64,000 nt of DNA from Candidatus Binatia bacterium (GCA_047611725.1 JBLFWR010000003.1:18779-82778), one strand, 5' to 3'; numbered from the stretch's first letter, positions 5,765 to 49,726 are shown. The notes: generated by a model not told the origin, from the letters alone. Numbers and translations: made by a program.

Positions 5765-5783
5765 AACCAGGCTGTCGGTGCGG

Positions 5784-6401
5784 TCAGCCGTTCGCGTAGA
5801 AGCTTTGAATAGCAGGGTGCGACAACACATTGTCGCGATGCTCGATCAACAACGGTGCGATCCGGTCAGCTAAATCGACCGGAATGTGATCGAGCCCGCC
5901 AGACGTCAAATTGCGTATCCATACAGCTACCGCGAGGTCGCAAACCGTCAGCCGGGAGTCGGCAAAATACTCTCCGCCGGCCTCGATCAAACGGGTGTGA
6001 AGGCGCTCGAGGTAGAAGGGAAACGGGCCTTCGGCCAATGCGATTCGTCGCGCCTTGAGATTGTCGGGGCTGTCGCTGCCAAACGTCGCAACCAACTTGA
6101 CAAGCATTTCTTCGACGGCATCCATGATCTCGTCACAGCGTGCCGCTTCCCAGGCGTCTTCGGGATACAGGCCCGCCAGCTTTCCGACGAACCGATTGAT
6201 CGTGTTGGATTGAGTTAGTTCGTCATTGTCACGCGAAAGAACCGGAACTGCGTGGAAGAACATTTGTTCGCGAGTGTTGGGCCACTCTGAGACCGGGATA
6301 CGGTGATCTTCGAACGGGATGCCCCCAACAACGAAAGCAAGCCTGGCGGCCTCGCCGCGGCCGTTGATGAAATCGAAGTAAGACAGTTTGAGTTTCGACA
6401 T
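5784..6401 (-). CDS. Glutathione S-transferase family protein
   Basis: MSKLKLSYFDF.GRGE..RL thioredoxin-like N-terminal domain plus a GST C-terminal domain. Confidence 0.8.
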   Translation of the reverse strand: MSKLKLSYFDFINGRGEAARLAFVVGGIPFEDHRIPVSEWPNTREQMFFHAVPVLSRDNDELTQSNTINRFVGKLAGLYPEDAWEAARCDEIMDAVEEMLVKLVATFGSDSPDNLKARRIALAEGPFPFYLERLHTRLIEAGGEYFADSRLTVCDLAVAVWIRNLTSGGLDHIPVDLADRIAPLLIEHRDNVLSHPAIQSFYANG

Positions 6402-16886: not shown

Positions 16887-18086
16887 CTAGTCCAAAAAGT
16901 CTCCATCCTTTAACCGCTGGGGTACATACTTTTCGGTAACGTAGGAAATATCCTTTGAGATCAGCGCTTCGACTTCCAGCTTGAAGCCGTTCTTGAGCAT
17001 CAACTGGATTTCGCGCTGCCACTCCCGCTTGTTGGCGAACCACGGGTAAGCCGCGATCTGCTTCGCGCGTTTAATGTCGTTGTCGTTGAGGTCAATCGTT
17101 ACCGACGGAGTTAACTCGCAGGCAGTGTAGTCCTTGCTGCGAAGACCGATGAAGCGGGCATCGGGAATCGCCATACGCTGCGATTCATAGGCCAAATTAA
17201 TCGACCCCTGCTTGAGCACCGAATAGATGTAGTACCCCCAAGGGTCGTTATCGAGCAGGCAATACACCGGTAGTTTCAGCTCGTTGTGCAAGCGGTACAG
17301 CATGCGGCGCACCCCGCGCGGAGGTTGGCCACCACCGTGGGTAAGAATGCACTTGTGGGTGCGCCAAAACTTATCTTCGTTAAAGCGCTGCCAAACAGTG
17401 TCCTTTTCGACGTGCAAGACGAACTTCGCATCGCAGCGCCCAAACTCGATCACGTCGGGCTCCACGATCGATGGAATCCCATAGCCGCCCGATCCCATAT
17501 GTGCACAGTCAATTACGTCGCCATTGTCGGTCAACGTAATTTCACCGACCATGTCGCCCTTCTTCTGAGCGTAGAGATGCAACTGTTCGCGCAGGGCGTT
17601 TAGGGTGACTTCAATGTCCTCAATGATCGGATCGCAATCACCCTGGTCATCGAACGTCTCTTCCTTGGTGCCCGGGATGGTGTGCTTGAGAAGATAGTAC
17701 AGACCACGAATCGATGTGGTCTTGCCCTCGTCAATCAGCTGCTTGCAGCCCGAGCCGACCAGCACCGACTGCATGTAGCTCTTGGCCTGCGAGAGATTGA
17801 ACAACTCGCGCCGATTGGTGCCTGTGCCCATTTCGATGAAGCGCTTGCGCTTGTTGTAACTTACGTTGGACAAGGAGCGAGAAGGAATCTCCAAGTGCGG
17901 CGTGCGGCGTTTGGAGGCCGCGGTGACCACGGAATCGGCCAAGCCTCTTAGTGACGCAAGCGTGCGTTGATCGACCTCGTTCCGCGCAGCGGCCAGTGCC
18001 GCGTTCTTGGCCGCTCGTGCAGCCTCCGCCTTGGCCGCAGCTTTCGTCGAGCCAGTTTTTTTCTTGCCGGTCGCCATCGAAATCAC
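16887..18086 (-). CDS. top6A: DNA topoisomerase VI subunit A (Spo11/Top6A family)
   Basis: Toprim and CAP motifs FVLHVEKD, LLDNDPWGYYIYSV and SINLAYESQRMAIPDARFIGL align closely with archaeal Top6A. The start overlaps the top6B stop by 4 nt. Confidence 0.9.
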   Translation of the reverse strand: MISMATGKKKTGSTKAAAKAEAARAAKNAALAAARNEVDQRTLASLRGLADSVVTAASKRRTPHLEIPSRSLSNVSYNKRKRFIEMGTGTNRRELFNLSQAKSYMQSVLVGSGCKQLIDEGKTTSIRGLYYLLKHTIPGTKEETFDDQGDCDPIIEDIEVTLNALREQLHLYAQKKGDMVGEITLTDNGDVIDCAHMGSGGYGIPSIVEPDVIEFGRCDAKFVLHVEKDTVWQRFNEDKFWRTHKCILTHGGGQPPRGVRRMLYRLHNELKLPVYCLLDNDPWGYYIYSVLKQGSINLAYESQRMAIPDARFIGLRSKDYTACELTPSVTIDLNDNDIKRAKQIAAYPWFANKREWQREIQLMLKNGFKLEVEALISKDISYVTEKYVPQRLKDGDFLD

Positions 18087-31455: not shown

Positions 31456-33708
31456 ATGCCCGCCATTTACTCGATCGATCGCAACGCGATGTCCGGACCG
31501 CGCCGTTCCACGAAAGCCAAGCCGGGTATAACAACCTACAAAACTCTCTGCGCCAGTTGCGACATCGCTTGTAGTGTTGTTACCGAAGTCAAAGATGGCC
31601 GCGTCGTTCGGGTTCGGTCGTCTGACAATCCGATCTTCAAAGACAACATCTGCATGAAGGGGATCGTTGCTCCGAAGGGCTTCGCCCACCCCGATCGCAT
31701 CCACTATCCGCTGCGACGGGTTGGCGAGCGTGGTTCGGGCAAGTGGGAACGAGTGGGCTGGGATGAGGCAATGTCGGACATTTCAGTTCGCCTAAAAGCG
31801 ATCATCGATGAACATGGACCAGAAGCGTGGGCGGTTTCCACAAGTCAGTGGAATACAGCGACCGATCACGGTCTAGGCCGCCGCATCATGAACCACGTAG
31901 GCTCCCCGAATTGGATTAGCGGAGTCGCCCTTTGCGCGGGCAACACGGCGGCGATCAACCGGCTGACCTACGGATGGTTTCCGTTCGCAGATTTCACCAA
32001 CACGAAATGCATTGTGCTTTTCGGGCACAACCCCAAACGCCACAGCTGGGTTCCAATCTACAATCAGATCCGCAGTGCCCAGGCCCGCGGAGCGAAGCTC
32101 ATCGTCCTGGACCCACGTAGAAGTGAGAACGCTGAGCTGGCAGACATCTGGCTCCCCCTTAAAGCGGGTAGCGACGGAGCGATGTGCTTCGGCTGGCTGA
32201 AAGTCATTCTCGACGAAGGTCTATTCGACAAAGAGTTTGTCGCAAAGTGGACGGTCGGATTTGAAAAACTGCGCGCGCGCGTAAACGAGTACCCCCTGGA
32301 ACGTGTCGCCAAGCTCACCGGCTGCGATATCGAGATGATTAGTGAAGCCGCCCGCATGTACGCAACGCAAGGCCCATCGGTAATTCCGTGGACACCGATC
32401 ACCGACATGCAGCGCAACTCAACGTCTGCGATTCGATTGCACAGCATCCTGCGAGCTGTGTGCGGCTACCTCGACGTTCCTGGCGGCGAGTCGTTCCAAG
32501 GTTTCAACCCCGACGTGATTTCAGAATCTGAAATCGAAATGCACGAAGCTTTAAGCGAAGAGCAGAAAGCCAAACAACTCGGCTCCGACACCCATCCGGC
32601 ATTTACCTACCGTGGGCAGCAAGCCCTGCGCGAGCCAAGTAAACGCGTATGGGGACACGAGTATGCGAACCAAGTTACCGGGTGCTTCATGGCCAACCCG
32701 TCGGCGACGTTCCGCGCGATGGCAGGAGAAGGCCCATACCCGGTCAAGGCTTTTTTCACGCTTGGCAATAACACGATGATGAGCTTCGCCAACATGCCGT
32801 TGATCATCAAGGCGATGATGAATCAGGATCTGATCGTCGTGCACGAGCAGTTCATGACTCCAACGGCACAGCTGGCTGATTACATTTTTCCCGGAGACAG
32901 CTGGCTCGAACGCCCGTGGCTCATGGATGGATTTGGCTGGACGTCGATGTACCGCCCCTCGCAAAAATCGATGAACCCGCCCGGAGAATGTGAAAGCACA
33001 TTTGGATTCTGGAAGCGGCTGGCCAACGCCATGGACCTCAACGACGTTGTGCCTTGGGCAAAACTCGAGGATTTTTACGACGAACGCCTGCGCAAAACCG
33101 GAATGAACTTCGCCCAGTTCGCTGAAACACACGAGGTGTATTTTGGCCCCTTGGAATACAAGAAATACGAGCAAACGGGTTTTGCGACGCCGAGCGGAAA
33201 GGTTGAACTAGCCTCATCGATTCTTGCCGACCTCGGCTTCGACGCCCTTCCCTACTTCCGTGAAGATCCTGAGATTGACCCGAAGTTCCCGTTGATGATG
33301 TTCACCGGCGTGCGCGAAGACGAGTACTTCCAAACTGGGCATCGGCACATTCCGGAGATGCGCAGCCGCAAACCAGAGCCCACCCTTTTCATCAGCCCAA
33401 ACACAGCCACCGAAGTAGGCGTGGTTGAAGACGAGTGGGTCGAGGTCATGAACCCAACCGGCAAGATCAAGATCATGGTCAGCATTCGTGAATCGATGCC
33501 CGACGGTTTGGTTCGCATCCCCCATGGCTGGTGGAAGCCTGAGATGAAACAAGGCGCGGGCCATTTATCGGGCGCCCTGGATTTCGCCGACGCGCAACTT
33601 TGCCCCGACGATGAAGACTACCTAGATCGAGAACAGGGCATCCCGCACTTGAAAGGTATCCCGTGTCGCATCGATAAAATCTCCGCAACCCCGGGACTAT
33701 CGCAATGA
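31456..33708 (+). CDS. Molybdopterin-dependent oxidoreductase (DMSO-reductase family catalytic subunit)
   Basis: N-terminal 4Fe-4S Cys cluster (CASCDIAC...C), molybdopterin oxidoreductase and molybdopterin dinucleotide-binding domains. 750 aa. Confidence 0.8.
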   Translation: MPAIYSIDRNAMSGPRRSTKAKPGITTYKTLCASCDIACSVVTEVKDGRVVRVRSSDNPIFKDNICMKGIVAPKGFAHPDRIHYPLRRVGERGSGKWERVGWDEAMSDISVRLKAIIDEHGPEAWAVSTSQWNTATDHGLGRRIMNHVGSPNWISGVALCAGNTAAINRLTYGWFPFADFTNTKCIVLFGHNPKRHSWVPIYNQIRSAQARGAKLIVLDPRRSENAELADIWLPLKAGSDGAMCFGWLKVILDEGLFDKEFVAKWTVGFEKLRARVNEYPLERVAKLTGCDIEMISEAARMYATQGPSVIPWTPITDMQRNSTSAIRLHSILRAVCGYLDVPGGESFQGFNPDVISESEIEMHEALSEEQKAKQLGSDTHPAFTYRGQQALREPSKRVWGHEYANQVTGCFMANPSATFRAMAGEGPYPVKAFFTLGNNTMMSFANMPLIIKAMMNQDLIVVHEQFMTPTAQLADYIFPGDSWLERPWLMDGFGWTSMYRPSQKSMNPPGECESTFGFWKRLANAMDLNDVVPWAKLEDFYDERLRKTGMNFAQFAETHEVYFGPLEYKKYEQTGFATPSGKVELASSILADLGFDALPYFREDPEIDPKFPLMMFTGVREDEYFQTGHRHIPEMRSRKPEPTLFISPNTATEVGVVEDEWVEVMNPTGKIKIMVSIRESMPDGLVRIPHGWWKPEMKQGAGHLSGALDFADAQLCPDDEDYLDREQGIPHLKGIPCRIDKISATPGLSQ

Positions 33709-33989
33709 GTCGTAATAGTGACGGGTACAACGCTCGAGCCCGGCAGGCGAAGATCACCATGTGGCTCGGAAAGCGGGCGTCACGCGACACCGGAATCGTT
33801 GACCGGCTGTGCCGCAAGCTACTCCAGCGCGTGACCCAGCCCGACCCCCAGAACGATTTCATGCATGATGAAATGATTGAGTCCGACCTCGGCTTCGACG
33901 CCGAAGAACTGGCTCGCTATCAGCGCGGCGAGACTGGGCGCGAGACTGCGGGCGAAACCGACGGTGGAACTGGCCGCGAGCCGGATTGA
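33705..33989 (+). CDS. Small hypothetical protein translationally coupled to the molybdoenzyme gene
   Basis: ATGA overlap with the upstream gene. 94 aa and acidic. No recognisable family. Confidence 0.35.
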   Translation: MSRNSDGYNARARQAKITMWLGKRASRDTGIVDRLCRKLLQRVTQPDPQNDFMHDEMIESDLGFDAEELARYQRGETGRETAGETDGGTGREPD

Positions 33990-34135: not shown

Positions 34136-34672
34136 GTGCCCCCCATATCATCCACACCGCGGCCCGCCGAGACCGACCTGCCGGACGAAGTCCTGCGATC
34201 GATTCGACGTATTCTGCGTAGGATCTCCGAGCACTCTCGCTGGTTGTCCCGTGAGATCGGCCTAACCGTGCCGCAATTGGTCTGCATGAGGGCAATCGGG
34301 GTACTCGAGGAATCTGGCAAACGAGAAATCACCGTAGCCCTGGTCGCGGCTGAGGTTTCGATGAGTGCACCTACCGTCTCAAGAATCCTTGATCGCATGG
34401 TTACGGCTGGCCTCGTGACGCGCGAGCGGCGTGCAATAGATCGCCGCAAAGTGTGCCTGAGTCTGACTGATTTGGGGGCCGAGCGCCGGGCTTCATTACC
34501 GTCGGCGCTCCAAGATCGCTTCACGGATAGACTAAGTTCTCTTCCGGAAATTCGCCGCCGCGAACTACTCGGGGCATTGAACGAAATCGGTGCGATGATG
34601 GATGCCGATGACTTGGTAGCAGCGCCGATTCTCACTGAGGGCTCTGACCTCAAGCCTCCAGTCGAAGGCTGA
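34136..34672 (+). CDS. MarR family transcriptional regulator
   Basis: Winged helix-turn-helix (LTVPQLVCMRAIG...VSRILDRMV.AGLV.RER...DRR). Confidence 0.8.
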   Translation: MPPISSTPRPAETDLPDEVLRSIRRILRRISEHSRWLSREIGLTVPQLVCMRAIGVLEESGKREITVALVAAEVSMSAPTVSRILDRMVTAGLVTRERRAIDRRKVCLSLTDLGAERRASLPSALQDRFTDRLSSLPEIRRRELLGALNEIGAMMDADDLVAAPILTEGSDLKPPVEG

Positions 34673-34696
34673 GCCAACCAGCCTCAATCAGGATTC

Positions 34697-36133
34697 TTAT
34701 CCTTTGTTCGCCAGCGTGCGGCTTTCCACGGCCGACCAGATCGCGTGGATCGTGAATGGCACCAACATCCCGGGCAGCAGCTTGAAAATGTCCCCCGCCC
34801 ACGGCGAGGCTCCCCAGGCAAAAACAGTCGCCAGGCCAGCCACCATCATCACGACTCCCTGAGCACTGCCGACGTCGCGACCAGCCACCCGCAAAACCAT
34901 TAGAGGGCCGAGACTGGCACCAAGAGCCGACCAGGCGACAAGCACGAGATCGAAGACGCCCCCTTGAGCAAAGATGGCCAGAAACAGGGCCAAGCTCGTT
35001 ACCGCCAGCGTCGCCGCTTTGGATGCGAAGCTAGACTTGTTCAAGTGCGGCGCCAGGTCCTGGGTCACGACCGCCGAACAAGCCAAAACCTGCGAGTCGG
35101 CCGTAGACATGGTCGCCGAAAACAGCCCAGCCAGAACAAGGCCGACAAGGACCTGAGGCAACAGTAAGTTCGCTAGCAGCGGAAGCGTTTGCTCCGCGGC
35201 GGCAGCCGAGGCGCCTGCCGGTACGGCCGCGACAAGATCGGGAAGCAAGACCCGACCGCAAAGGCCTGCAAGCACCGCCAGAATATTGAACGGAATGAAC
35301 CACGCGAAGTACACGCGGCGCGCCGCCGGAATGGCATCGACCGAACAGATGGCCATGCTTCGAACCAAAATGTGAGGCTGCCCAACGGCTCCAAAGCCCG
35401 CCACGACGAAACCGAGGAAGTACAGTCCGAAGCCAAACGCCAACCCTTGTGGCAACCACTCGACCAGTGACGGATCTTGCGTTGCCAACGAGGTCATCAG
35501 GTTCGACGGACCACCGATCTGAACCATCGCCATCGTGGTCAGCAGCAACATCGACCCGAACATCACGAACGATTGCACTGCGTCCGTCCAGATCGAGGCG
35601 CGCAGCCCGCCGGAAAAACAATACGCCGTAACGATGGTAGCGCCCAGTGTGGCACCGGCCCATGGTGGCCAGCCGAAAAGCTGTTCAAGAGCTAGGCTTC
35701 CGGCTCGGAACTGAGCCGCAGCGTAGCCGCCTAGAAAAATGAACGTGAGTAGGCCCGCGACGATGAGGATCCCGCGCTCGCGCTTGCCGTCATCGCGCGT
35801 GGCAAGCAGCGAAGTAACCGACGAAATTTCTAGTCGCCCAGAGATTTCACGCACACGGCCGTGGACCCATAGCCATACGAAAAGATCGCCAACCACCCAG
35901 CCAGCCTGCAGCCACACGGCCTGGACGCCGAACCGGTACGCGAAGCCAAGCAGGCCGATGAACATGAAACCGCTGTTGTTGGTGGCAACCGACGACAGCG
36001 CCGTCAACCACGGCGAGACCGTGCGACCGGCGACTAGGTAGTCTTCGGTCGTTCCGGTACTCTTTCGCACCGACAACAAGCCGACCACGCTGAAGAGCGA
36101 GAGAAAGAAAATGAAGCTGAGAGCAGCCTGCAT
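34697..36133 (-). CDS. Sodium:solute symporter family transporter
   Basis: About 13 transmembrane segments. N-terminal SSS-family consensus (DYLVAGR...S..AT..S...F.G). Confidence 0.8.
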   Translation of the reverse strand: MQAALSFIFFLSLFSVVGLLSVRKSTGTTEDYLVAGRTVSPWLTALSSVATNNSGFMFIGLLGFAYRFGVQAVWLQAGWVVGDLFVWLWVHGRVREISGRLEISSVTSLLATRDDGKRERGILIVAGLLTFIFLGGYAAAQFRAGSLALEQLFGWPPWAGATLGATIVTAYCFSGGLRASIWTDAVQSFVMFGSMLLLTTMAMVQIGGPSNLMTSLATQDPSLVEWLPQGLAFGFGLYFLGFVVAGFGAVGQPHILVRSMAICSVDAIPAARRVYFAWFIPFNILAVLAGLCGRVLLPDLVAAVPAGASAAAAEQTLPLLANLLLPQVLVGLVLAGLFSATMSTADSQVLACSAVVTQDLAPHLNKSSFASKAATLAVTSLALFLAIFAQGGVFDLVLVAWSALGASLGPLMVLRVAGRDVGSAQGVVMMVAGLATVFAWGASPWAGDIFKLLPGMLVPFTIHAIWSAVESRTLANKG

Positions 36134-36162
36134 CTGGCGACCTCAGCCCTGAGCCCGCGGGT

Positions 36163-37470
36163 TCAAGACGCCTTGCGAATCGGCTCGCTCTCTTCTGTGT
36201 CGGCGAACACCTCACTCATACTTTCGGCGATGATGTCGAGTCCGGAAACTAGCATCGGCACATCGATAGTAAGCGAGGGCAAGAGCTTCAACACTTCGTC
36301 ATCCGGACCTGCGGTCTCGATCACCAACCCGCGCTCGAAACACGCGCGAGAGATGGCAGACGCCACGTTGCGGTTTTCGAAGGCCAGCCCTTGGATCAGG
36401 CCGCGGCCGCGATGCTCGCCACCGTGGGTGGCTGCCAGTTCCGCGAGAGTGGAACTCACCGTGGCCGCCTTGCTGGCAACGTCGCGCGTAAACGCGTCGT
36501 CCTTCCAATAAAGCTCAAGCGCCGCAGTGGCCGTCACGAAAGCATGGTTGTTACCGCGAAAGGTACCGTTGTGTTCGCCCGGCTGCCAAACATCGAGTTC
36601 GGGGCGGAACAGAACCACCGAAAGCGGTAGGCCGAAACCTGACAGAGACTTCGAAAGACAAACCACATCGGGATCGAGCCCCGCATCTTCAAAGCTGAAG
36701 AAGGGGCCAGTGCGACCGCAACCAACCTGAATGTCATCAACGATGAAAAGGATGTCGTTCTCATTCGCCAACCGTTCCAGGCGGCGTAGCCAAGAAATCG
36801 AGGCCTCATTGATGCCGCCTTCAGCTTGGATTGTCTCGACGATGAATGCTGCTGGCTTGTCCAGACCACTACTACCGTCGTTGAGAAGAGCCTGAAGGTA
36901 GTCGAGTGTATCGACACCCTCTCCCAAGTAGCCGTCGAACGGCAAGGTGGTAACCCCACCCAGTCCAAGCCCCGCTCCTTCACGTTTCATGCTGTTGCCG
37001 GTTAACGAAAGCGCCCCAAGCGTCATTCCGTGAAACGCATTGGTAAACGATATGATGTTGGTTCGACCCGTGACCTTGCGAACCAACTTCAGAGCCGCCT
37101 CAACGGCGTTAGTGCCCGTGGGTCCGGGAAACATAACCTTGTACTCGAGGTTGCGTGGTTCCAGCACGGTGGAAACTAGCGTCTGAAGGAATTTTTCCTT
37201 GGCGTCTGTAGCGAGATCCAACCCGTGCGTGATGCCGTCCCTAGTAATGTAGTCGACGAGCGCGCTTTTCAGCTCGGGGTTGTTATGGCCGTAGTTCAGA
37301 GCTCCGGCGCCGGCCAGGAAGTCGATGTAGGGGCAACCACTTCGGTCGAACATTTCCGACCCTACGGCTCGGTCGAAAATGACCGGAAACGAACGACAGT
37401 AGGTACGAACGCCGGATTCGTGGCGCTCGAACGTAGAAAGGTCTGTGTCAGTGTTACGATGCTTGCTCAT
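36163..37470 (-). CDS. ectB: Diaminobutyrate--2-oxoglutarate transaminase
   Basis: N-terminal FERHESGVRTYCRSFPVIF signature and a class-III aminotransferase fold. Immediately follows ectA. Confidence 0.9.
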   Translation of the reverse strand: MSKHRNTDTDLSTFERHESGVRTYCRSFPVIFDRAVGSEMFDRSGCPYIDFLAGAGALNYGHNNPELKSALVDYITRDGITHGLDLATDAKEKFLQTLVSTVLEPRNLEYKVMFPGPTGTNAVEAALKLVRKVTGRTNIISFTNAFHGMTLGALSLTGNSMKREGAGLGLGGVTTLPFDGYLGEGVDTLDYLQALLNDGSSGLDKPAAFIVETIQAEGGINEASISWLRRLERLANENDILFIVDDIQVGCGRTGPFFSFEDAGLDPDVVCLSKSLSGFGLPLSVVLFRPELDVWQPGEHNGTFRGNNHAFVTATAALELYWKDDAFTRDVASKAATVSSTLAELAATHGGEHRGRGLIQGLAFENRNVASAISRACFERGLVIETAGPDDEVLKLLPSLTIDVPMLVSGLDIIAESMSEVFADTEESEPIRKAS

Positions 37471-37993
37471 GGGTGTCTCCCTTTTGAATCTGAGCGACGG
37501 CGCCGTGAACTTGAGTCACAGGCCGTAGCGGACCGATGCGATACAGGGGTTCGTCTTCGTGAGACGCCCCTCCGAAATGTTCGCGCGTGAAATAGTCACG
37601 CACGACACATTCCGTTTCGCGGCGACGTGCAAAGCCGCGGAACATGGCATCAGAACTTTGGTTATCGGGAGCCACCGTGGCTTCCAGGTAATGCACGTTG
37701 CTACAAGCGGGGCTTGAAGCGAGCGTTTCGAGAAGAGCCGTGCCGAGACCGAGGCCGCGCGAGTTCGCGTCCACTCCGATCTGCCACACGAAAATCGTTG
37801 CAGGGTCAGCGGGCGGGCAGTAGCCCGCAACAAAGCCTGCGATCGCGCCATCCGAACTTACCGCCACCAATGATGTCGCAGCGAAGTGCGTGCATATGAG
37901 CAGATAGGCGTACAAGGAGTTGGCCTCCAAGGCCTCGGACGCAACCACCAAGCGATGGATACCGACCGCGTCCGCCGCCACAGGCTGGCGCAT
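37454..37993 (-). CDS. ectA: L-2,4-diaminobutyrate acetyltransferase (start may lie further upstream, up to 38143)
   Basis: ANSLYAYLLICTHF, FVWQIGVD...RG.GLG and ATVAPDNQSS align with EctA. 17-nt overlap with ectB. Confidence 0.8.
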   Translation of the reverse strand: MRQPVAADAVGIHRLVVASEALEANSLYAYLLICTHFAATSLVAVSSDGAIAGFVAGYCPPADPATIFVWQIGVDANSRGLGLGTALLETLASSPACSNVHYLEATVAPDNQSSDAMFRGFARRRETECVVRDYFTREHFGGASHEDEPLYRIGPLRPVTQVHGAVAQIQKGDTHEQAS

Positions 37994-38090
37994 ATGGGGC
38001 TGCACCAAACTGTCCTCGCCGGACAGAGCGCCTGAAAACTCGGGCTTTTCTTGTTGTTCTTTCAAACTGGGGTGGCAGCGCGACAGGGTT

Positions 38091-38145
38091 GTCAAAATTA
38101 GTTGCTGCGACAACAAGTTAGTTGCCCCGACAATTGGTGTCAATC
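38091..38145. promoter_or_regulatory. Two 16-nt direct repeats (ttagttgcNNcgacaa) plus TTGACA-like boxes in the divergent ectA/ectC control region
   Basis: ttagttgctgcgacaa-caag-ttagttgccccgacaa. The minus strand has TTGACA-17nt-TAACTT. Confidence 0.4.
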
Positions 38146-38297
38146 ATGCTCTTTTTGAGGAAATTCGGCGCCAACCCTGGGGCCAATTTGATTCACAGAG
38201 CCAAATCATCCACGAAAACACCCAGTTCGCCGAAAAAAATGGTTGCTGGCCGCGACGAGAACACCGACCGCGTCGATGAAGGCCCAAGGGAAATTGC

Positions 38298-38687
38298 ATG
38301 AAAATCGTTAGATTGTCAGAAATCGTCGGAACCGACCGCGATGTTGAGGGGCCTGGCTGGAAGAGTCGCCGCCTTCTGCTCAAGAAGGACGGCATGGGGT
38401 TTTCCTTTCATGAAACGCTAATTCCCCCCGGTGCAGAGCTACGCCTTTGGTACAAGAACCACCTTGAAGCCGTCTATTGTGTAGCGGGCGACGGGAGCAT
38501 CGAAAACCTAGCCACCGGCGAAATTCACGAAATCAGCGACGGGACCCTGTACGCGCTGAACGCGCACGACCGGCATGTTGTACGTGGCGGGAGCAAAGAG
38601 ATGCGGCTCGTGTGTGCGTTTAACCCACCGGTGACCGGGCGCGAAACCCATGACGCCGATGGGTCGTACACATTGGTCGATGATTGA
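38298..38687 (+). CDS. ectC: L-ectoine synthase
   Basis: [16 protein letters not shown]...[13 protein letters not shown]...[13 protein letters not shown] (cupin fold). Transcribed divergently from ectAB. Confidence 0.9.
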
Positions 38688-38992: not shown

Positions 38993-40273
38993 TCAGCTAC
39001 CGACCTTGCCGGGCGTAAATTTGCACGGCATTCGTTTGATACCGTTAATAAAGCCCGAACGCAGGAAGTCCGGTTCGCCGGTAATTTCCAAATCAGGCAA
39101 GCGTCGGAAAATCTCACGGAACATCACGGTAATTTCTCGGCGAGCTAGATTTGCGCCGAGGCAAAAGTGCGGGCCTGGCCCCCCGAATCCGACATGATCG
39201 TTGGGGGTACGGCGGACATCAAAGGAGTGGGGATCCTTGAACACGGCCTCATCGCGATTTCCTGACGCATACCACAGTACCGCTTTGTCTCCCTCGCGCA
39301 TTTGCTGCCCACCGATTTCGTAATCTCGCAGCAAGCTGCGACGCATTTGAATCACTGGCGTCGCGACTCGAACGATCTCTTCCACAGCGGTGGGAGCAAC
39401 TCCCTCGAAATCGGCCGCCCAAATAGCGCGCTGATCCGGGTTGTCGCAGAGCGCCTTCATGCCGTGGCTGATCGAGTTTCGTGTTGTCTCATTGCCGGCA
39501 ACGACCAAGAGGACGAAAAACGAGCAAAGCTCTTCTTCGGTGAACGCACCGTCTTCTTGGCCGGCATCAAGAAGCATGGTCGTCATGTCATCTTTCGGAT
39601 TCTTGCGACGGTCTTCGGCCATCTCACTCATGAGTTCGGCCAGAGCCGCGCCTGCCATCATCGCAGCCGTCTGTAAATCGCCGCCCGGAGGGACGAAGTC
39701 GGGGTCACCGAGGCCGAGAATGGTATTGGTCTGCTCGAACACCATCGCGGCCTTGCTGTCGGGAATACCCATCATGTCGCAGATGATCTCAAGTGGCAGC
39801 GGCGCGGCAATATCGGTAACGAAATCGCACTCACCTCGCTCGATCACACGATCGACGACCAAACGTGCCCGTTCGATAACCTGCTGGTCCAGGCGCTGCA
39901 GAGATCGTGGGGTAAAACCACGCGACACAATACGGCGCTGCCGCGCATGGCGCGGGTCGTCCATATTGATCATGCCGCCGAAAAACTCGTTGAATTCAAC
40001 GGGCAGATCCATAATCGACGTCGCACCGCGCGCCGAACTGAACACATCGGCCATGCGGCTGGCCTCCAAGATGTCGGCATGTCGGGTCAGGTTCCAAAAA
40101 CCCGGACCCGGCTCGATAGGCAGTCCGGGAATCCTATGTTCCTTAAGAAAGGGAATCGGCCGTTCCGCACGCAGCGTAGCAAAGGCCCCCTCGCGCTCGG
40201 CCAAGGGCCGTCCCCAAAACTCGATATCCGCTAAATCGATTTCGTCTACCGAGAGAACCTGTCGCATTTCCAT
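38993..40273 (-). CDS. Cytochrome P450
   Basis: FGGPGPHFCLGANLARRE haem-binding loop and AGNETTRN (I-helix). Confidence 0.85.
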   Translation of the reverse strand: MEMRQVLSVDEIDLADIEFWGRPLAEREGAFATLRAERPIPFLKEHRIPGLPIEPGPGFWNLTRHADILEASRMADVFSSARGATSIMDLPVEFNEFFGGMINMDDPRHARQRRIVSRGFTPRSLQRLDQQVIERARLVVDRVIERGECDFVTDIAAPLPLEIICDMMGIPDSKAAMVFEQTNTILGLGDPDFVPPGGDLQTAAMMAGAALAELMSEMAEDRRKNPKDDMTTMLLDAGQEDGAFTEEELCSFFVLLVVAGNETTRNSISHGMKALCDNPDQRAIWAADFEGVAPTAVEEIVRVATPVIQMRRSLLRDYEIGGQQMREGDKAVLWYASGNRDEAVFKDPHSFDVRRTPNDHVGFGGPGPHFCLGANLARREITVMFREIFRRLPDLEITGEPDFLRSGFINGIKRMPCKFTPGKVGS

Positions 40274-40353
40274 CCTGCTGTCTTAATGGAAATTCTGGAT
40301 AGGTCCACACAAGGCGAACCGGGCGGCCCTAGTGTGTCCGGCGATCCTCGCCT

Positions 40354-41871
40354 ATGGATGTCAGCGGGGACACAACTTCCTGCAACCCTTTGTCAGACCG
40401 GAGACTCGTTGACGTGACCACAAACACCACCCTTCGCATCGCCATCATCGGCGCCGGCCCCGGTGGCCTTGCCGCTGGACACGAACTTCTCGACAAAGGG
40501 TTCACAAACTTCACCCTATTCGAGGCCACCGATGCGGTGGGCGGCACCTGGCACATCCACACCTACCCGGGCTTGGCCTGCGATGTCTGGGCTCACTCGT
40601 ACACGTTTTCCTATCGGCCGAATCCGGATTGGACCGCAAACTTCGTCGAACAGCCGGAAATCGAACAATACCTGCAAACCTGCGCACTCGAGTTTGGGCT
40701 GACCCCGCACATAAAACTCAACACACGCATTGCTAGCGCCGTGTACCAAGACGGTGGAAGCTGGCGGCTGACCAGCGAACGCGGCGAGACATTCGAGTGC
40801 GACGTCGTGATCAACGCGATGGGCAACCAGCACACGCCGCTATACCCAGATGTTCCGGGCAAAGAAGATTTTGCTGGGAACAGTTTTCACGGCACACGCT
40901 GGGATCACACGGTCGAACTCCGAGGCAAGCGCGTCGTTGTTGTGGGGTCGGCGGCAAGCGCCGTGCAGATCGTCCCCGAAATCGCCAAGGTCGTCGGCCA
41001 TCTCACGGTTTTGCAACGAAGCGCCAACTGGATCATGCCGCGCCGACGCAAGCTGTACTCGGACGCCAAGCGCAATTGGTTTCGCCGCTTGCCGCTTTTG
41101 ATACGGCTTACCCAGCGCTTTCAGCGTTTTCTCATGAGTTTCGTTCTTCCCGCCGTCACGATCGGGCACAAGCGCATGAAGGATTTCGAGAAACTCGCAA
41201 AACGCTACCTCGACTCGGTGATTCCGGAGGGCGCAATGCGCGACGCACTGACTCCGGACTCGCAGTACGGGTGCAAGCGAGGGTTGGTCTCTGATGACTT
41301 CTACCCCGCGTTGATGCGTGAAAACACAGAGCTGGTGCACGACGGGTTGGGCAAGGTTCGCCCCGAAGGAATTACAACCAGCGGCGGCCGTGAGATCGAC
41401 GTAGACGTCATCATCTACTGCACCGGCTATCGAATTCTCGACTTCGATCGAATCAACGTAGTCGGAGAGAACAGCCAAACCCTCGCCGCGCAAATGAGCG
41501 ACACACCCGAAGCGCACAAGGGCATCGCAGCACCTGGCTTTCCGAACTACTTCTTCGCGGTCGGCCCGAACGGGTTGGTGCTAGACACCCCGTACTTTAT
41601 GACCGTCGAAAAGAACCTCGAGACCATCGTTCGACTGCTCATCGAAAAGGAAGCCGCGGGTCTGCACGCAATCGCCGTCAAACCCGACCTTCACCGTGCG
41701 TACAACGACTGGATGGAACCGCGTTTTCCTTTGTATTCGTGGGGCAATGAGGCTTGCAGCAGCTACTACCGCACCGCCAGCGGCCGAGTCCCCTTCCTAT
41801 ACCCCGGCAGCTTCAAGGACTACACGAAAATGCACGCGGCCATCACTCTTGAAGAGTTCGAATCGCGTTAG
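40354..41871 (+). CDS. Flavin-containing (Baeyer-Villiger-type) monooxygenase; probable GTG start near 40413
   Basis: Two Rossmann dinucleotide-binding motifs (IAIIGAGPGG; VVVVGSAASAVQI) and an FMO-family layout. Confidence 0.8.
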   Translation: MDVSGDTTSCNPLSDRRLVDVTTNTTLRIAIIGAGPGGLAAGHELLDKGFTNFTLFEATDAVGGTWHIHTYPGLACDVWAHSYTFSYRPNPDWTANFVEQPEIEQYLQTCALEFGLTPHIKLNTRIASAVYQDGGSWRLTSERGETFECDVVINAMGNQHTPLYPDVPGKEDFAGNSFHGTRWDHTVELRGKRVVVVGSAASAVQIVPEIAKVVGHLTVLQRSANWIMPRRRKLYSDAKRNWFRRLPLLIRLTQRFQRFLMSFVLPAVTIGHKRMKDFEKLAKRYLDSVIPEGAMRDALTPDSQYGCKRGLVSDDFYPALMRENTELVHDGLGKVRPEGITTSGGREIDVDVIIYCTGYRILDFDRINVVGENSQTLAAQMSDTPEAHKGIAAPGFPNYFFAVGPNGLVLDTPYFMTVEKNLETIVRLLIEKEAAGLHAIAVKPDLHRAYNDWMEPRFPLYSWGNEACSSYYRTASGRVPFLYPGSFKDYTKMHAAITLEEFESR

Positions 41872-43171: not shown

Positions 43172-44221
43172 TCAGCTCGTCTCTCGCTCGACCGCACCGC
43201 CGGTGATCTCGGCAATCACCCGCGTCGCATACGCTCCGGATGGCAGGAAGAACGAAAGCACAACAACCCCCTCATCACCCCCATCTTGCCGCTTCCACTC
43301 AATGTCCAAAGGACGAACCAGAAGGTCGCGTCGCGTCCCCGGTGCCTCGCGGGCCAACTTTTCCAAGGTATCTGCGGGAAACGCTCCGGCAGCCTCGTCT
43401 TCCATAATCGCGGCCCCGCCCGCGGCCACACGCATCTTCGGGCCGTGAATCGGGCCTGTCAGGTGAACGTCTCCGTTTGCCAGCCGCAGTTGTTCCGCGC
43501 TCAAATCTTCGACAACAAACACACCTGAACTGCCCTCGAGGCGAACGACCTCACCTTCGATCAACTGCTTCAATCCGAGCTCAGCCCGCGCAACCGCATA
43601 TCGATTGAAGATCTCGGATTGTATGGCACTGGCCAACAGCTTGCGCAGACGGCGATCTTTAACGCGCCGGCCATCGAGCCAGGCAACAGCCTCATCAAGG
43701 TTGCGGCCGCCATAGCCAAAACGCTGGGCGTCGAAAATATTGAGGTAGCCATCGTTGGCCATCGTTTCGCACACGGCTGCGATGTTGCCATCCGCGGTTT
43801 CGCCGGTCTCGACTCCAACCAAACGGACCTCGAAACGATTTCCGCGTAAATGGCCAGTACGCAGTTTGTTGCTGTGGCGTGCGACCTCCAACACGGAGCA
43901 CCAATCGGGCAACTCCCAAGCCATCGCGTCTCCGGCATCGCGAGCGGGCATGCTCAGCCATTGTTCGGTGACTGCGTGTTTGTCCTTCATCCCCGCCGAG
44001 CCGATCTCTCGATCGCGGATGCCAGTGACAAGACTAACCGCTCGAATCAGATCTCGCGTGGTTCGCGAACGTTTACGCATGCGAACGTAGAGGTGTTCCC
44101 CCTCGCCGCAGAACTCGTAGGCTGGAATTTCGGTGACGCGAAAATCTTCCGGGTCGGGGCCCAACTGGCCACCGACCGCAGAAATATGGGTCAGACTGCG
44201 TTCAGGAATGGTAGGAAGCAC
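43172..44221 (-). CDS. truD: tRNA pseudouridine(13) synthase
   Basis: FRVTEIPAYEFCGEGEHLYVRMRK...GSAGMKDKHAVTEQW matches TruD. Confidence 0.85.
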   Translation of the reverse strand: MLPTIPERSLTHISAVGGQLGPDPEDFRVTEIPAYEFCGEGEHLYVRMRKRSRTTRDLIRAVSLVTGIRDREIGSAGMKDKHAVTEQWLSMPARDAGDAMAWELPDWCSVLEVARHSNKLRTGHLRGNRFEVRLVGVETGETADGNIAAVCETMANDGYLNIFDAQRFGYGGRNLDEAVAWLDGRRVKDRRLRKLLASAIQSEIFNRYAVARAELGLKQLIEGEVVRLEGSSGVFVVEDLSAEQLRLANGDVHLTGPIHGPKMRVAAGGAAIMEDEAAGAFPADTLEKLAREAPGTRRDLLVRPLDIEWKRQDGGDEGVVVLSFFLPSGAYATRVIAEITGGAVERETS

Positions 44222-46060: not shown

Positions 46061-47233
46061 TCACCTATACAGAAGCGCTGCTTCTCTAGCCCCGTCGTAG
46101 ACCTGGAGCCCATCCAGAGCCGCAGCCATGACGTCTTCGAAATGCGCGAACCTGTCGATCGCTTCGCGGACACTCGGTTTTCCGGTTAGCAGATCGATCG
46201 CGGGAACGTCGTCACGAAACTCGTACGGTTCAGCTCGCCAGGCGAATGATTCGGGCCACAGTTCATGAACGGCGGCAACCACAGCCAAGCCCGTTCGATA
46301 GGAATTGAAATGCTGCCGGTCTGTGACGTGAAGCTGCAGTCCACCGCAGCGCTTTCCGGCCCACTTATCGAATGTCGGCACGAACACGCAGGGGCGCAGC
46401 GCAAGACCGGGCAAGTTCATGCTAGCCAAACGTGCGGCAAGCTTGCCGCCGTTAATCCATGGCGCACCGAACAGTTCGAACGGACGAGTCGTTCCGCGCG
46501 CTTCGGAAATGTTAGTGCCTTCAAGCAAACACATTCCGGGATACACAACGGCCGTATCGACCGTCGGCATGTTCGGCGATGGCATTACCCACGGCAATCC
46601 GGTGGCTTCGAAATAGTCGGCGCGCTTCCAACCCTGGCAGGCAACGACCTCGAGCTCGCAGTCAATTGAAAACGCATTGCGATACAAGCGAGCCAATTCC
46701 CCGACCGTCATCGCGTGACGTTGCGGCACCGGATACAAACCGCAAAAATTCTCAAGGCCCTGATCAAGGCCGCCGCCTTCAACTTGGGAGCCTCCGATCG
46801 GGTTGGGCCGATCCAGCACGATCACTTTCACACCCGCCCGGCCCGCAGCGCGCATGCACAACGCCATCGTTGCCGCGTAGGTGTAGTAGCGGGCCCCAAC
46901 ATCCTGAATGTCGAAGAGCAGGACATCGAGGTCGACAAGCTGGTCGGGCTGCGGCGACAAGCTGTCAAAGGTTTCGCCGTAGAGACTGACTTCGGCGATG
47001 CCGGTGGCAGGGTCGTGGCCGTCACCAACCCCAACCATGTACTGGGCTTCCCCACGAATACCGTGTTCGGGGCCGAACAAACGCTGCAAATCGACGGCCG
47101 AGCTGGCATGCAAAAGGTCAACAGCGTGCCGCAAGTTGCGATCAACAGTCGTGGGATTGGCGACAAGCCCCACGCGTGCACCGCCGAGATAATGGCGCGG
47201 GTCGCCCAAAAGTCGTTCCAAGCCAGTTTGCAT
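46061..47233 (-). CDS. DUF1343 family protein (NamZ-like exo-beta-N-acetylmuramidase); the ORF extends to 47395
   Basis: ARVGLVANPTTVDRNLRHAVDLL...LFGPEHG and downstream DUF1343 motifs. Internal ATG MQTGLERLLG chosen. Confidence 0.7.
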   Translation of the reverse strand: MQTGLERLLGDPRHYLGGARVGLVANPTTVDRNLRHAVDLLHASSAVDLQRLFGPEHGIRGEAQYMVGVGDGHDPATGIAEVSLYGETFDSLSPQPDQLVDLDVLLFDIQDVGARYYTYAATMALCMRAAGRAGVKVIVLDRPNPIGGSQVEGGGLDQGLENFCGLYPVPQRHAMTVGELARLYRNAFSIDCELEVVACQGWKRADYFEATGLPWVMPSPNMPTVDTAVVYPGMCLLEGTNISEARGTTRPFELFGAPWINGGKLAARLASMNLPGLALRPCVFVPTFDKWAGKRCGGLQLHVTDRQHFNSYRTGLAVVAAVHELWPESFAWRAEPYEFRDDVPAIDLLTGKPSVREAIDRFAHFEDVMAAALDGLQVYDGAREAALLYR

Positions 47234-47339
47234 CGCGCCACTGTAGCCGAGAATTGGGCGAAGGTCGCGCAACGCGGCTTGCACAGTTTGCGCAGAGCAT
47301 CGCAGTTGGAAGCCGTCCGGGGCGGTGCGATGCTGACGC

Positions 47340-48884
47340 GTGCCGGAAACCAACGAAGCCGACGAGGCCCCATCAACACCCAACGCCGCGAACACCGAGA
47401 TCCCAAAGGATCCGCGCGGCGCGCGCGCGGCGGTTTGGACCTCAAGTACGTACTTCGCCGAAGGCTTTCCCTACACGATCGTCAATGGCCTCCCCGAGAT
47501 GCTGTTCAAGGAGTTCGGCGCGAGCCTGGAGTCCATCGGACTGACATCGCTGTTCCATCTTCCGTGGAATCTGAAGTTCCTCTGGGGCCCCTTTCTTGAC
47601 CGCTTCGGCACGAAGCGAAAATGGCTACTCGGCGTCGAGGTCGTCCTGACCGCACTGCTGTTCGCTTTGGCGGCAGCGGTTTCAGGAGGCAATGTATTGG
47701 TTGCCGCGTCGGTTTGTTTTTTCGCGATTGCCATTGCGGCGGCCACCCATGACATCGCCATCGACGGCTACTACCTAGAGGCACTCGACGAAGCCGATCA
47801 ATCGCGCTTCGTAGGAACTCGCGCCACGGCGTATCGCATCGCGATGCTTGCGGCGTCAGGTCCTTTAGTCTTGCTCATCGGAAAGGTCGGATGGACGTAC
47901 GCACTGCTTTTTGGCGCGACGACAATGGGCGGCCTTTTGCTGTTCCACACCCGTTTCCTTCCCAGGGTCGAGACCGAAACCCGCCCGATACGTGAACTGC
48001 TTCCGCTGCTTGCCACCCCGACCATGCTTGGCGGCGTGGCCAGTCTTGGCGCAGCGATCTGGGTGCTTTGGGAGCTGGCCGCACGCGGTGCTGCCGGGAC
48101 GTTGCCCGAGCCCTTCGCTTCGATCTTTGGCGCCGTGTCGTTCTCGGGATGGCTAGGACTGACCTTGCTCGCAGCGCTAGGGGCAATCTTGCTCGCGCTA
48201 CCCCGAATTCGCACGCGCATGGAATCATCGGAGAGTTTCTACGCCGAGGCCTTCGTCAATTTCCTCGCCCAAGATCGTATCGCGGTGATCCTCGGCTTCG
48301 TCATCCTGTTCCGAGCCGGCGAGTCGTTTCTATTGAAAATGCGCTACGCATTTCTGTCGGACATCGGAATCAGCATCGAACAATACGGCATCGCCAGCGG
48401 AACGTTTGGAGTCATCGCTTCATTCGTCGCCACCATCGCGGCCGGTTGGTTGATCTCAAGCGGTGGCTTGCGGAAATGGATTTGGCCCTTCGTGCTCGGC
48501 CAGAACCTGTTGAATCTTCTCTACGCCGTATTGGCGGCGCACTACGCTCCCCTGTGGCTCGACCCCGGTTCCGGAAGTGCAAGCATGGTTGTCGTTACGG
48601 TTACGATCATCATCGAGTCAGCAGGCGCGGGCCTCGGGACAGCCGTGTTCATGGTCTACCTCATGCGCTGCTGTCGCCCTGGCTACAAGGCGGCACACAT
48701 GGCTATTTTGACTGCCCTAATGAGCGTGAGCTTTACATTGGCTGGCGTAGCTAGCGGCTTCCTGGCGACACGTCTTGGTTTCACAAACTATTTCGTCTTC
48801 ACATTCTTGACGACGATTCCGGGGATGCTGCTAATTTTCCGACTGCCGTACTTGGACAGCGCGCCGGTGGCGAAGACTGCATGA
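47340..48884 (+). CDS. ampG: AmpG-family major-facilitator-superfamily (MFS) muropeptide permease
   Basis: FPYTIVNGLP..L....G.SL..IGL.SL..LPWNLKFLWGPFLDR signature. 12-14 transmembrane segments. Confidence 0.8.
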   Translation: MPETNEADEAPSTPNAANTEIPKDPRGARAAVWTSSTYFAEGFPYTIVNGLPEMLFKEFGASLESIGLTSLFHLPWNLKFLWGPFLDRFGTKRKWLLGVEVVLTALLFALAAAVSGGNVLVAASVCFFAIAIAAATHDIAIDGYYLEALDEADQSRFVGTRATAYRIAMLAASGPLVLLIGKVGWTYALLFGATTMGGLLLFHTRFLPRVETETRPIRELLPLLATPTMLGGVASLGAAIWVLWELAARGAAGTLPEPFASIFGAVSFSGWLGLTLLAALGAILLALPRIRTRMESSESFYAEAFVNFLAQDRIAVILGFVILFRAGESFLLKMRYAFLSDIGISIEQYGIASGTFGVIASFVATIAAGWLISSGGLRKWIWPFVLGQNLLNLLYAVLAAHYAPLWLDPGSGSASMVVVTVTIIIESAGAGLGTAVFMVYLMRCCRPGYKAAHMAILTALMSVSFTLAGVASGFLATRLGFTNYFVFTFLTTIPGMLLIFRLPYLDSAPVAKTA

Positions 48885-49726
48885 GCGAAGCGACATCAGC
48901 TACATCACCTAAGCAAATCGGGAGCGCCGGGCTTACCGGGCTTACCGACGAGCAAGTCAGCGCCTACTGGCGCGACGGCTATGTCATTGTGCGTGGCCTG
49001 TTCGACGAAACCACACTCGCGCCATGGCGCGAACGCGTACGCGATTTGGCAACCCGCCGCGTACCCCCAAGCCCCAACATGACACTGGTTCGCGACGTCA
49101 TGTTCGCCAAAGGTGCCGCCGAGCCTCTAACTCCCGAGCACGAGATCTGCAAGATCAACTTCTTTGAAAATGATCCGGTACTCGCCACCTACGCCAACCA
49201 CCCTGGTCTGCTCGACTGTATTGAGGCGTTGCTCGGTCCCGAGCTTTTGTTCGTTAACAGCATGGTTATCACTAAGCCGCCGGGCGTGGATGGGCGCCAC
49301 CCTCTACATCAGGACCTATTGTACTTTGGGTTCCGACCCGGCGACGCGTTGGTCGGAACGTGGACCGCCCTGGAAGAGGTCAACCGAGACAACGGCGGGC
49401 TTTCCGTGCTGCCCCGTAGCCATCGCGGCACTTTACTCGAACACGACGTGCCCGACTGGGACTATGTCAACGCGGGCTTCTTCGGCGCCAACAACATCGA
49501 CCCCAACGCCGAGCGCGTGCATGTCGAAATGAACGCGGGCGACACCTTGCTGTTCCACTCTCAGTTGTTACACGGCTCGGGGACCAACAGGACCGATCGA
49601 TTCCGCCGGGCGATCTCAACCCACTACGTGCGCACGACGGCGGACGATCTTTGGAACGGCAAAGATGTGATTTCTAACCGCCCATGGATCCCCGTGCGCG
49701 CAGCCGCCCAACGACCAGAATCCTGA
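48881..49726 (+). CDS. Phytanoyl-CoA dioxygenase (PhyH) family Fe(II)/2-oxoglutarate oxygenase
   Basis: HQD...H motif context (RHPLHQDLLYF...LPRSHRG...H) and a PhyH-like fold. Confidence 0.75.
   Translation: MSEATSATSPKQIGSAGLTGLTDEQVSAYWRDGYVIVRGLFDETTLAPWRERVRDLATRRVPPSPNMTLVRDVMFAKGAAEPLTPEHEICKINFFENDPVLATYANHPGLLDCIEALLGPELLFVNSMVITKPPGVDGRHPLHQDLLYFGFRPGDALVGTWTALEEVNRDNGGLSVLPRSHRGTLLEHDVPDWDYVNAGFFGANNIDPNAERVHVEMNAGDTLLFHSQLLHGSGTNRTDRFRRAISTHYVRTTADDLWNGKDVISNRPWIPVRAAAQRPES

Follow-up and report, generated by a model that had tools for sequence, protein, structure and literature searches.

A likely chimeric ectoine locus with head-to-head ectA and ectC genes in an uncultured, Myxococcota-looking bacterium

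Gene content of the ect locus

Ectoine (ect) gene clusters are of use both as markers for osmoadaptation in genomes and as parts in industrial production. In the pathway, EctB converts aspartate semialdehyde to L-2,4-diaminobutyrate, EctA acetylates this intermediate to N-gamma-acetyl-diaminobutyrate and EctC cyclises the latter to ectoine. Here, we describe an ect locus at positions 34136 to 38687 of a DNA stretch of 64,000 nucleotides from a Candidatus Binatia bacterium (GCA_047611725.1, JBLFWR010000003.1:18779-82778); the whole stretch is called the window throughout. The ectC gene for the ectoine synthase (38298-38687) is located on the plus strand, head-to-head with the ectA gene for the diaminobutyrate acetyltransferase (37454-38005, minus strand). 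The ectA gene overlaps by 17 nt with the ectB gene for the L-2,4-diaminobutyrate transaminase (36163-37470, minus strand), which is followed after a gap of 29 nt by the last gene of the ectA-ectB-SSS series, encoding a transporter from the family of sodium:solute symporters (SSS) (34697-36133, minus strand). A marR gene for a MarR-family, EctR-like regulator (34136-34672, plus strand) converges on the SSS gene with a 24-nt gap. The five open reading frames (ORFs) have the positions and strands given in a preliminary description of this DNA, which had already called the layout non-canonical because of the divergent ectC and the convergent marR. Indeed, with ectC on the plus strand and ectA and ectB on the minus strand, the genes do not form the canonical co-directional ectA-ectB-ectC operon.

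The three biosynthetic enzymes score above the curated NCBIfam cut-offs, in agreement with their earlier identification. EctA matches the TIGR02406 equivalog with 178.4 bits (cut-off 120.6), EctB the TIGR02407 equivalog with 635.0 bits (cut-off 552.2) and EctC the NF009806 model with 188.7 bits (cut-off 128), in addition to PF06339 (190.5 bits). The ectA reading frame is open up to a TTG at 38143, which would give a protein of 229 amino acids (aa). The true start is probably the GTG at 38005 or the ATG at 37993, because TIGR02406 is matched only from residue 51 of this ORF onwards and independent gene calls in two further assemblies (L081 and L082, see below) give an ectA of 183 aa. With a start at 38005, the spacer between ectA and ectC comprises 292 bp. 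EctC can be aligned over its entire length with the ectoine synthases of solved structure (5ONM and 5BXX), and according to this alignment it retains the three iron ligands (E57, Y85 and H93). Moreover, the residues W21, S23, R25, T40, Y52 and F108, which are given as substrate or product ligands of EctC (PMC6344544), are kept. Position 38 is occupied by His, as in the enzyme from Sphingopyxis (S. alaskensis), rather than by Asn.

Using Myxococcota-type queries, tblastn uncovered neither an aspartokinase (Ask) nor an EctD nor a second EctC in the 64-kb window. A PhyH-family dioxygenase (48881-49726) was considered as a distant EctD and rejected: it does not match the ectoine hydroxylase model and lacks the WHSDFETWH signature of EctD from Enhygromyxa salina, and tblastn with three EctD queries found nothing in the window. 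The locus is a genuine and probably functional gene set for the synthesis and import of ectoine.

Assembly and rarity of the divergent layout

It had been pointed out in the preliminary description that an inversion during assembly could have produced the opposite orientation of ectC, and this explanation is contradicted by two assemblies from different sequencing runs. In one of them (L081, SRR28416755), a 9.8-kb stretch from marR to the junction between ectC and a cytochrome P450 gene is 100% identical to the window and has the same gene order throughout. In the other (L082, SRR28416802), the same holds true over 7.4 kb, from near the 3' end of marR through a gene for a Baeyer-Villiger monooxygenase. 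Both assemblies span both ectC junctions. Furthermore, both NCBI and JGI have records of an identical EctC, with the contig reaching up to 95 kb. An assembly artefact is thus extremely improbable.

EctC served as the seed for 80 genome loci and EctB for 80 metagenome loci; together with the neighbourhoods of a dozen homologues, these loci (numbered with the prefix L) were used for comparison. The ectA, ectB and ectC genes are co-directional and in the order A-B-C in all 55 other loci that contain the three genes, and gene calls by Pfam gave the same order for L174 and L175. An ectC gene on the strand opposite to ectB is present only in L127 and L036; neither locus is arranged head-to-head and neither contains a match to ectA. 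A metagenomic contig (L177, JGI 3300027987, 4696-6390) carries a gene for an EctA-like acetyltransferase head-to-head with ectC, separated by a spacer of 726 bp. The EctA-like protein and EctC are 39% and 82% identical, respectively, to those of the window, and there is no ectB within 6 kb. By these predicted genes, L177 is a second, independent head-to-head arrangement of ectA and ectC in the EctC clade of the window. The head-to-head placement of ectC is uncommon but already described, and the architecture as such is not new in kind.

The ectAB-SSS-marR backbone and EctC have different relatives

The closest relative of the four genes other than ectC is a metagenomic locus from Logan (L083, SRR33139899, 6110-9965), which consists of ectA-ectB-SSS and a convergent marR. 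Its proteins are 60% (EctA), 73% (EctB), 75% (SSS) and 61% (MarR) identical to those of the window. No ectC, ectD or ask is present in L083 within 8 kb on either side. Weak tblastn matches to ectC (5058-5147) were rejected as a cryptic gene, as they lie in a Cys-rich ORF of 159 aa without a Pfam match. The bacterium harbouring L083 may thus make only N-gamma-acetyl-diaminobutyrate or use an unlinked ectC. The next relatives contain ectC within the operon. L085, which is from a metagenome-assembled genome (MAG), and L086 have the order ectA-ectB-ectC-SSS with a convergent marR, and the identities between the window and L085 are 53% for EctA, 64% for EctB, 66% for the SSS protein, 59% for MarR and 50% for EctC. 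Enhygromyxa salina (L084) has an ask-ectABCD-SSS cluster lacking marR, and Sandaracinus sp. (L174) has the same genes with a convergent marR. In L084, L085 and L174, ectC is kept between ectB and the SSS gene. In a MAG of the Polyangiales (L175, GCA_049288685.1, 1488-8948), ask-ectA-ectB-ectC is divergent from GNAT-ectD-SSS, and marR is again convergent. L175 is another split ect cluster, and its short EctA-like GNAT protein (137 aa) is 43-47% identical to EctA of the window.

Neighbour-joining trees with 100 bootstraps were calculated for EctA, EctB and EctC. In both the EctB and the EctA tree, the window protein is sister to that of L083 (bootstraps of 100 and 89, respectively), followed by L084/L085 (68 and 79). 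A metagenome scan for nearer relatives of EctB gave none above 63% identity, and L083 stays the closest one. The best relatives of the SSS protein belong to the Myxococcota and the Planctomycetota. The sequence comparison places EctA, EctB, the SSS protein and MarR closest to Myxococcota-type (ask-)ectABC(D)-SSS clusters with a convergent marR. The nearest named relatives of the window's TruD (43172-44221) are about 50% identical and belong to the Polyangiaceae, Myxococcales and Binatia. Taken together, TruD, the SSS protein, EctA and EctB are nearest to named sequences from Myxococcota (Polyangiaceae, Enhygromyxa, Sandaracinus and Kofleriaceae). The placement of TruD fits that of the ectAB-SSS-marR backbone, which likewise points to the Myxococcota.

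EctC gives a different picture. It is 71-83% identical to the enzymes from Methylonatrum, Ectothiorhodospiraceae, Spiribacter, Marinobacter and related bacteria, but only 48-50% identical to those of L084, L085 and L174 and 58% identical to that of L175. In the tree, it is nested in a clade of 23 members of the Ectothiorhodospiraceae/Marinobacter/Spiribacter/Desulfobulbales type with a bootstrap of 99, which includes the Spiribacter, Aquisalimonas, Arhodomonas and Marinobacter enzymes, while the EctC proteins of L084 and L085 pair elsewhere. The EctA and EctB proteins encoded next to the ectC genes of this clade are only 36-45% and 51-59% identical, respectively, to those of the window. For instance, the identities to the Methylonatrum proteins (L001) are 83% for EctC, 43% for EctA and 53% for EctB. 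Judged by these trees and identities, the history of ectC differs from that of ectAB-SSS-marR, a point absent from the preliminary description.

Genes of the window's ectC type are often not linked to other ect genes. Among the 80 genome loci with such an ectC, 58 lack both ectA and ectB within about 10 kb of it, and in six further ones ectA alone lies beside it. Likewise, four close metagenomic relatives, the nearest of those inspected, include three (L087, L089 and L176) with a solitary ectC. The same EctC clade also occurs in canonical ectABC(D) operons (e.g. L001, L002, L005 and L091). A cassette of ectC and a P450 gene in common with L089 was considered and rejected, the P450 proteins being only 28% identical over a partial alignment.

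An EctI-like candidate importer

The SSS transporter matches PF00474 (SSF) with 187.5 bits, which makes it a member of the sodium:solute symporter family; its distant matches in the PDB include SGLT, NIS and SiaT (5NV9). It does not reach the cut-offs of the PutP equivalog models (TIGR02121, 225.7 versus 515.5 bits; NF011948, 155.7 versus 955 bits), and a bona fide PutP proline transporter can therefore be ruled out. Homologues with 41-75% identity are linked to ect genes in L083, L084, L085, L095, L100, L174 and L175. Counted over seven inspected neighbourhoods, this group of SSS genes is ect-linked in six. The exception is a Phycisphaerales-type contig (L173, ENA ERZ17161837, 5410-8443), in which a gene for a MarR homologue (37%) is divergent from genes for a 308-aa GNAT protein and an SSS homologue (56%). 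No ect genes are near this pair, and a gene for an IS66 transposase is a few kb away. Thus, the SSS-MarR pair also travels outside ect clusters.

SSS importers encoded within ect clusters, designated EctI, have been characterised in Hyphomonas neptunium and Rubinisphaera brasiliensis (PMC13342039). They take up hydroxyectoine, some ectoine, several betaines and dimethylsulfoniopropionate, and planctomycetal EctI proteins share 38-40% identity with EctI from H. neptunium (PMC13342039). The window's transporter resembles EctI in being an SSS-family protein encoded in an ect cluster and no PutP equivalog; the two are likened by family and gene context. The SSS gene, co-transcribed after ectB, would therefore code for an EctI-like importer taking up or recapturing ectoine-type solutes. 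The preliminary description had proposed import of ectoine, proline or diaminobutyrate. Ectoine agrees with the conserved linkage to ect genes and with the EctI concept (PMC13342039), whereas proline and diaminobutyrate find no support, given the missed PutP cut-off.

The ectA promoter and a candidate operator

Strict scanning for sigma-70 promoters found none between 33.7 and 39.1 kb of the window, and terminator-like matches in this region were at chance level. A relaxed scan gave as the best promoter for ectA, which lies under the threshold of the strict scan, the sequence TTGACA-17-TAACTT on the minus strand (38115-38143), with 9 of 12 matching positions. Its -35 box (TTGACA, 38143-38138) and -10 box (TAACTT, 38120-38115) are separated by a 17-nt spacer. 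L083, L084, L085 and L174 likewise have a TTGACA box upstream of their ect operons. We infer that these boxes constitute the sigma-70-like promoter of ectA-ectB-SSS.

The spacer between ectA and ectC contains a direct tandem repeat of 19-20 nt, which is made up of two operator-like palindromes 20 bp apart. In the direction of ectA, TTGTCGGGGCAACTA (38133-38119) is followed by TTGTCGCAGCAACTA (38113-38099). Their common core, TTGYYRNRGCAA, has just two matches in the 64 kb, both in the ectA-ectC spacer. The first palindrome is located between the -35 and -10 boxes and the second one directly downstream of the -10 box, a placement that would correspond to the geometry expected of a repressor site. 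The core also occurs upstream of ectA in L085 and, with one mismatch, in L083. Moreover, it is present upstream of ask in L174 and in the divergent control region of L175, two loci that had not been used in defining the motif. About 0.004 chance matches would be expected in the roughly 500 bp of L174 and L175, as estimated from the degeneracy of the motif, versus two observed. The motif is absent from L084, the one relative without marR, and its other matches, dispersed over about 2.4 Mb of loci, occur about as often as expected by chance. As the motif recurs in the ect promoters of all four relatives with marR, TTGYYRNRGCAA is likely an EctR-type operator. In L085, an extra copy (10385-10396) precedes the called start of marR by about 330 bp, which hints at autoregulation; the marR gene of the window has no upstream copy of TTGYYRNRGCAA.

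MarR matches PF12802 (43.7 bits) and PF01047 (33.2 bits) and none of the dedicated NCBIfam models. Homologues with 46-61% identity are convergent with the SSS gene in the ect clusters L083, L085, L174 and L175, and more distant ones (33-47%) flank ect clusters in L048, L068, L095, L100, L114, L115, L124 and L147. In the fetched loci, which had been chosen for their ect genes, every phmmer match to MarR with E<1e-6 adjoins an ect cluster or an SSS gene. The preliminary description had labelled the regulator EctR-like, and both the convergent position of the homologues in four related clusters and the conserved palindrome in their ect promoters argue for this assignment. We infer that MarR is an EctR-like repressor of ectA-ectB-SSS, which would bind to the two tandem TTGYYRNRGCAA palindromes overlapping the ectA promoter.

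The palindromes are also located 165-199 bp upstream of the ATG of ectC. It had been proposed that splitting ectC from ectAB implies separate control of the cyclisation step. This proposal was drawn from the gene orientation alone: ectC and ectAB share one control region of 292 bp and, because this region carries the tandem operator-like sites, co-regulation is equally possible. Thus, separate control of ectC is possible, and the arrangement fits a shared bidirectional control region just as well.

Origin of the locus

The EctA and EctB trees group the window's proteins with L083 and L084/L085, while EctC sits in another clade. We consider it likely that the ectoine locus of this uncultured, Myxococcota-looking bacterium is chimeric yet functional. 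Phylogeny and synteny suggest that the backbone descends from a Myxococcota-type (ask-)ectABC(D)-SSS/marR cluster and that it would have lost ask, ectD and the in-operon ectC; L083 may represent this intermediate state, or a parallel one. Thereafter, the head-to-head position next to ectA would have been taken by an ectC from the Ectothiorhodospiraceae/Marinobacter/Spiribacter clade, whose ectC genes are mobile and mostly unlinked. In the likeliest scenario suggested by these comparisons, the in-operon ectC was lost and replaced by a separately acquired copy. The divergent ectC, expressed from the shared 292-bp spacer, would supply the cyclisation step to ectoine.

Several observations weigh against a chimeric origin. 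The bootstraps within the EctC clade are as low as 6-41, and the neighbour-joining trees were calculated from short proteins. A MAG of the Myxococcales (L087) also holds an ectC of the window type, and ectC could be inherited within a sub-lineage of the Myxococcota instead of being taken directly from a gammaproteobacterium. The GC content at the third codon positions of ectC is ordinary (z = -0.34), its compositional profile matches that of the neighbouring genes, and the surroundings of ectC show no flank similarity to other ectC loci. Moreover, there is no tRNA gene, Rfam element (including riboswitches) or mobile-element scar that marks an insertion, with tRNA genes and Rfam elements scanned over the 64 kb. 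A recent transfer detectable by composition and a co-transferred ectC promoter or cassette were therefore rejected on account of the z value and the unrelated flanks, respectively. Given the ordinary composition and the lack of flank homology, tRNA genes and scars, the transfer of ectC would be old or its donor of similar composition. Neither the strict nor the relaxed scan gave a convincing promoter for ectC, and the absence of ask from the window is a further point on this side. Finally, a MAG with an identical EctC (MFT4569433.1 and MFT5039698.1) is labelled by NCBI as "Hyphomicrobiaceae bacterium", in conflict with a host from the Myxococcota; we regard this label as doubtful, and it may reflect mis-classification or mis-binning.

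The ordinary composition of ectC and the lack of insertion scars would also be expected if a native in-operon ectC had merely been moved or inverted locally across ectA, with nothing foreign being involved. However, the low identity (48-58%) of EctC to the enzymes of the clusters that are nearest by EctA, EctB, the SSS protein and MarR, and its nesting in a different clade with a bootstrap of 99, make a local rearrangement highly unlikely. The EctC tree appears to refute it already, and the closest relative, L083, is already devoid of an in-operon ectC. L083 is at the same time an argument for the idea that ectA-ectB-SSS is self-sufficient for making N-gamma-acetyl-diaminobutyrate (or diaminobutyrate) and that the adjacent ectC, being of the solitary type, is incidental or has another role, as its ectAB-SSS-marR genes have no ectC nearby. 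It can be added that most members of the window's EctC clade are unlinked to ectAB and that the function of solitary EctC proteins was left undecided in the 2018 review (PMC5924519). We nevertheless regard an incidental ectC as quite unlikely. The clade also includes canonical ectABC(D) genes, EctC keeps all of its iron ligands and most of those for the substrate, and the head-to-head placement at 292 bp from ectA is the same in three assemblies. Furthermore, Spiribacter, which has scrambled ect genes with an EctC of the same clade, makes ectoine in a salt-dependent manner (Leon et al. 2018, PMC5818414).

The locus could also be a decaying remnant, while another, intact ectABC(D) operon outside this region does the work, a possibility already raised in the preliminary description. 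The missing ask and ectD genes would agree with decay, and genomes with multiple ect clusters or extra ectC copies are on record (PMC5924519). On the other hand, the five ORFs are all intact with full-length family scores, the overlap of ectA and ectB suggests translational coupling, and the gap between ectB and the SSS gene is short. The predicted promoter and the candidate operator, which are conserved in the relatives, are retained as well. As a second copy is also absent from the 64-kb window, the sole stretch that was searched, a remnant is very unlikely.

The replacement of ectC in a Myxococcota-type cluster can be extended to a bolder proposal, which we regard as rather unlikely. The ect pathway would be modular in nature, and a lineage of the Myxococcota would run ectA-ectB-ectI/ectR as a stand-alone system, with N-gamma-acetyl-diaminobutyrate as the product or with ectC elsewhere, as in L083. 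The window would then display the capture of a free-roaming foreign ectC, inserted head-to-head, with one tandem EctR operator within a bidirectional control region governing both halves of the locus. If true, this would be a natural case in which a compatible-solute pathway had its signature enzyme replaced by a xenologue, combined with regulatory capture.

Gene neighbourhood in the window

Two genes lie directly upstream of marR and on the same strand (31456-33989, plus strand). The first encodes a cytoplasmic-type molybdopterin oxidoreductase of 750 aa, for which the best model is the formate dehydrogenase alpha subunit, far under its cut-off. The second is a 94-aa ORF overlapping the stop codon of the first, and a TetR gene precedes the two. 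Owing to the common strand and the adjacent position, marR could be read through from the molybdopterin oxidoreductase operon. Flanking genes of the ect locus (38993-41871 and 55738-57084) encode two cytochromes P450 and a flavin monooxygenase of the Baeyer-Villiger type, and genes for an acyl-CoA ligase, an acyl-CoA dehydrogenase, a luciferase-like monooxygenase and a fatty-acid desaturase are near the locus. By these annotations, the neighbourhood is rich in putative genes of oxidative lipid or hydrocarbon metabolism.

Further away, the gene for an AmpG-family muropeptide permease overlaps that for the PhyH-family dioxygenase by 4 nt (47340-49726, plus strand). The two genes are divergent from a gene for a NamZ exo-N-acetylmuramidase (46061-47395), and the dioxygenase is an odd partner for two genes of cell-wall recycling. 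At 16887-20389 (minus strand), the apparently bacterial genome contains a gene pair for the subunits A and B of DNA topoisomerase VI, an enzyme that is typical of archaea and eukaryotes. Subunit A matches NF003333 with 550.8 bits (cut-off 465), and subunit B has the Topo-VIb transducer and HATPase domains.

Comparison with known ectoine systems

Rearranged ect clusters have been documented in the 2018 review (PMC5924519). The scrambled ect genes of the Spiribacter/Marinobacter/Alkalilimnicola group (PMC5818414), of which Alkalilimnicola was compared by description, resemble the locus of the window in that ectC lies on the strand opposite to ectAB and in that they share its EctC clade, which is known for unlinked ect genes. 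In contrast, EctA and EctB of the window are only 36-45% and 51-59% identical, respectively, to those of this group and belong to a Myxococcota-type lineage, and the host appears to be one of the Myxococcota. Moreover, the operon of the window is completed by an SSS importer and a convergent MarR. With the Myxococcota-type clusters L174, L084 and L085, the locus has in common the backbone of ectA and ectB leading to the SSS gene and then a convergent MarR, which is lacking in L084. The palindromic promoter motif is shared with the Myxococcota-type clusters that contain marR (L083, L085, L174 and L175). Unlike the ask-ectABCD-SSS clusters of this type, the window has no ask, ectD or in-operon ectC, and its ectC belongs to another clade and is placed head-to-head.

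The understanding of ectoine synthesis is unchanged by this locus. However, the marker enzyme EctC can differ in history from EctA and EctB within one cluster, so that phylogenomics based on EctC can give a cluster the wrong origin. Working loci will escape cluster-mining rules that expect ectABC to be on a single strand. The comparison also yields TTGYYRNRGCAA as a candidate operator for the poorly understood EctR-type repressors, together with a set of EctI-like transporters from Myxococcota.

EctR and CosR are well-known MarR-type repressors encoded beside ect clusters (PMC5924519, PMC13342039). EctR1 from Methylotuvimicrobium alcaliphilum is a repressor of the MarR type that acts on ect genes (Mustakhimov et al. 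2010, as cited in PMC5924519 and PMC13342039). As far as EctR1 is described in these papers, the regulator of the window resembles it in being an ect-linked member of the MarR family with a pseudo-palindromic candidate operator that overlaps the predicted ectA promoter. The marR gene of the window differs from ectR and cosR in its convergent position at the 3' end of the operon; in L100 and L124, the marR homologue is located beside the ect promoter. Moreover, the candidate motif of the window (TTGYYRNRGCAA) contains G and C, whereas the EctR1 site is given as A/T-rich with an 8-2-8 structure (PMC5924519). Thus, it can be stated that a divergent ectC, SSS importers linked to ect genes and EctR have each been published before, and that the discordant origin of ectC, the sister locus L083 devoid of ectC and the conserved candidate operator are new here.

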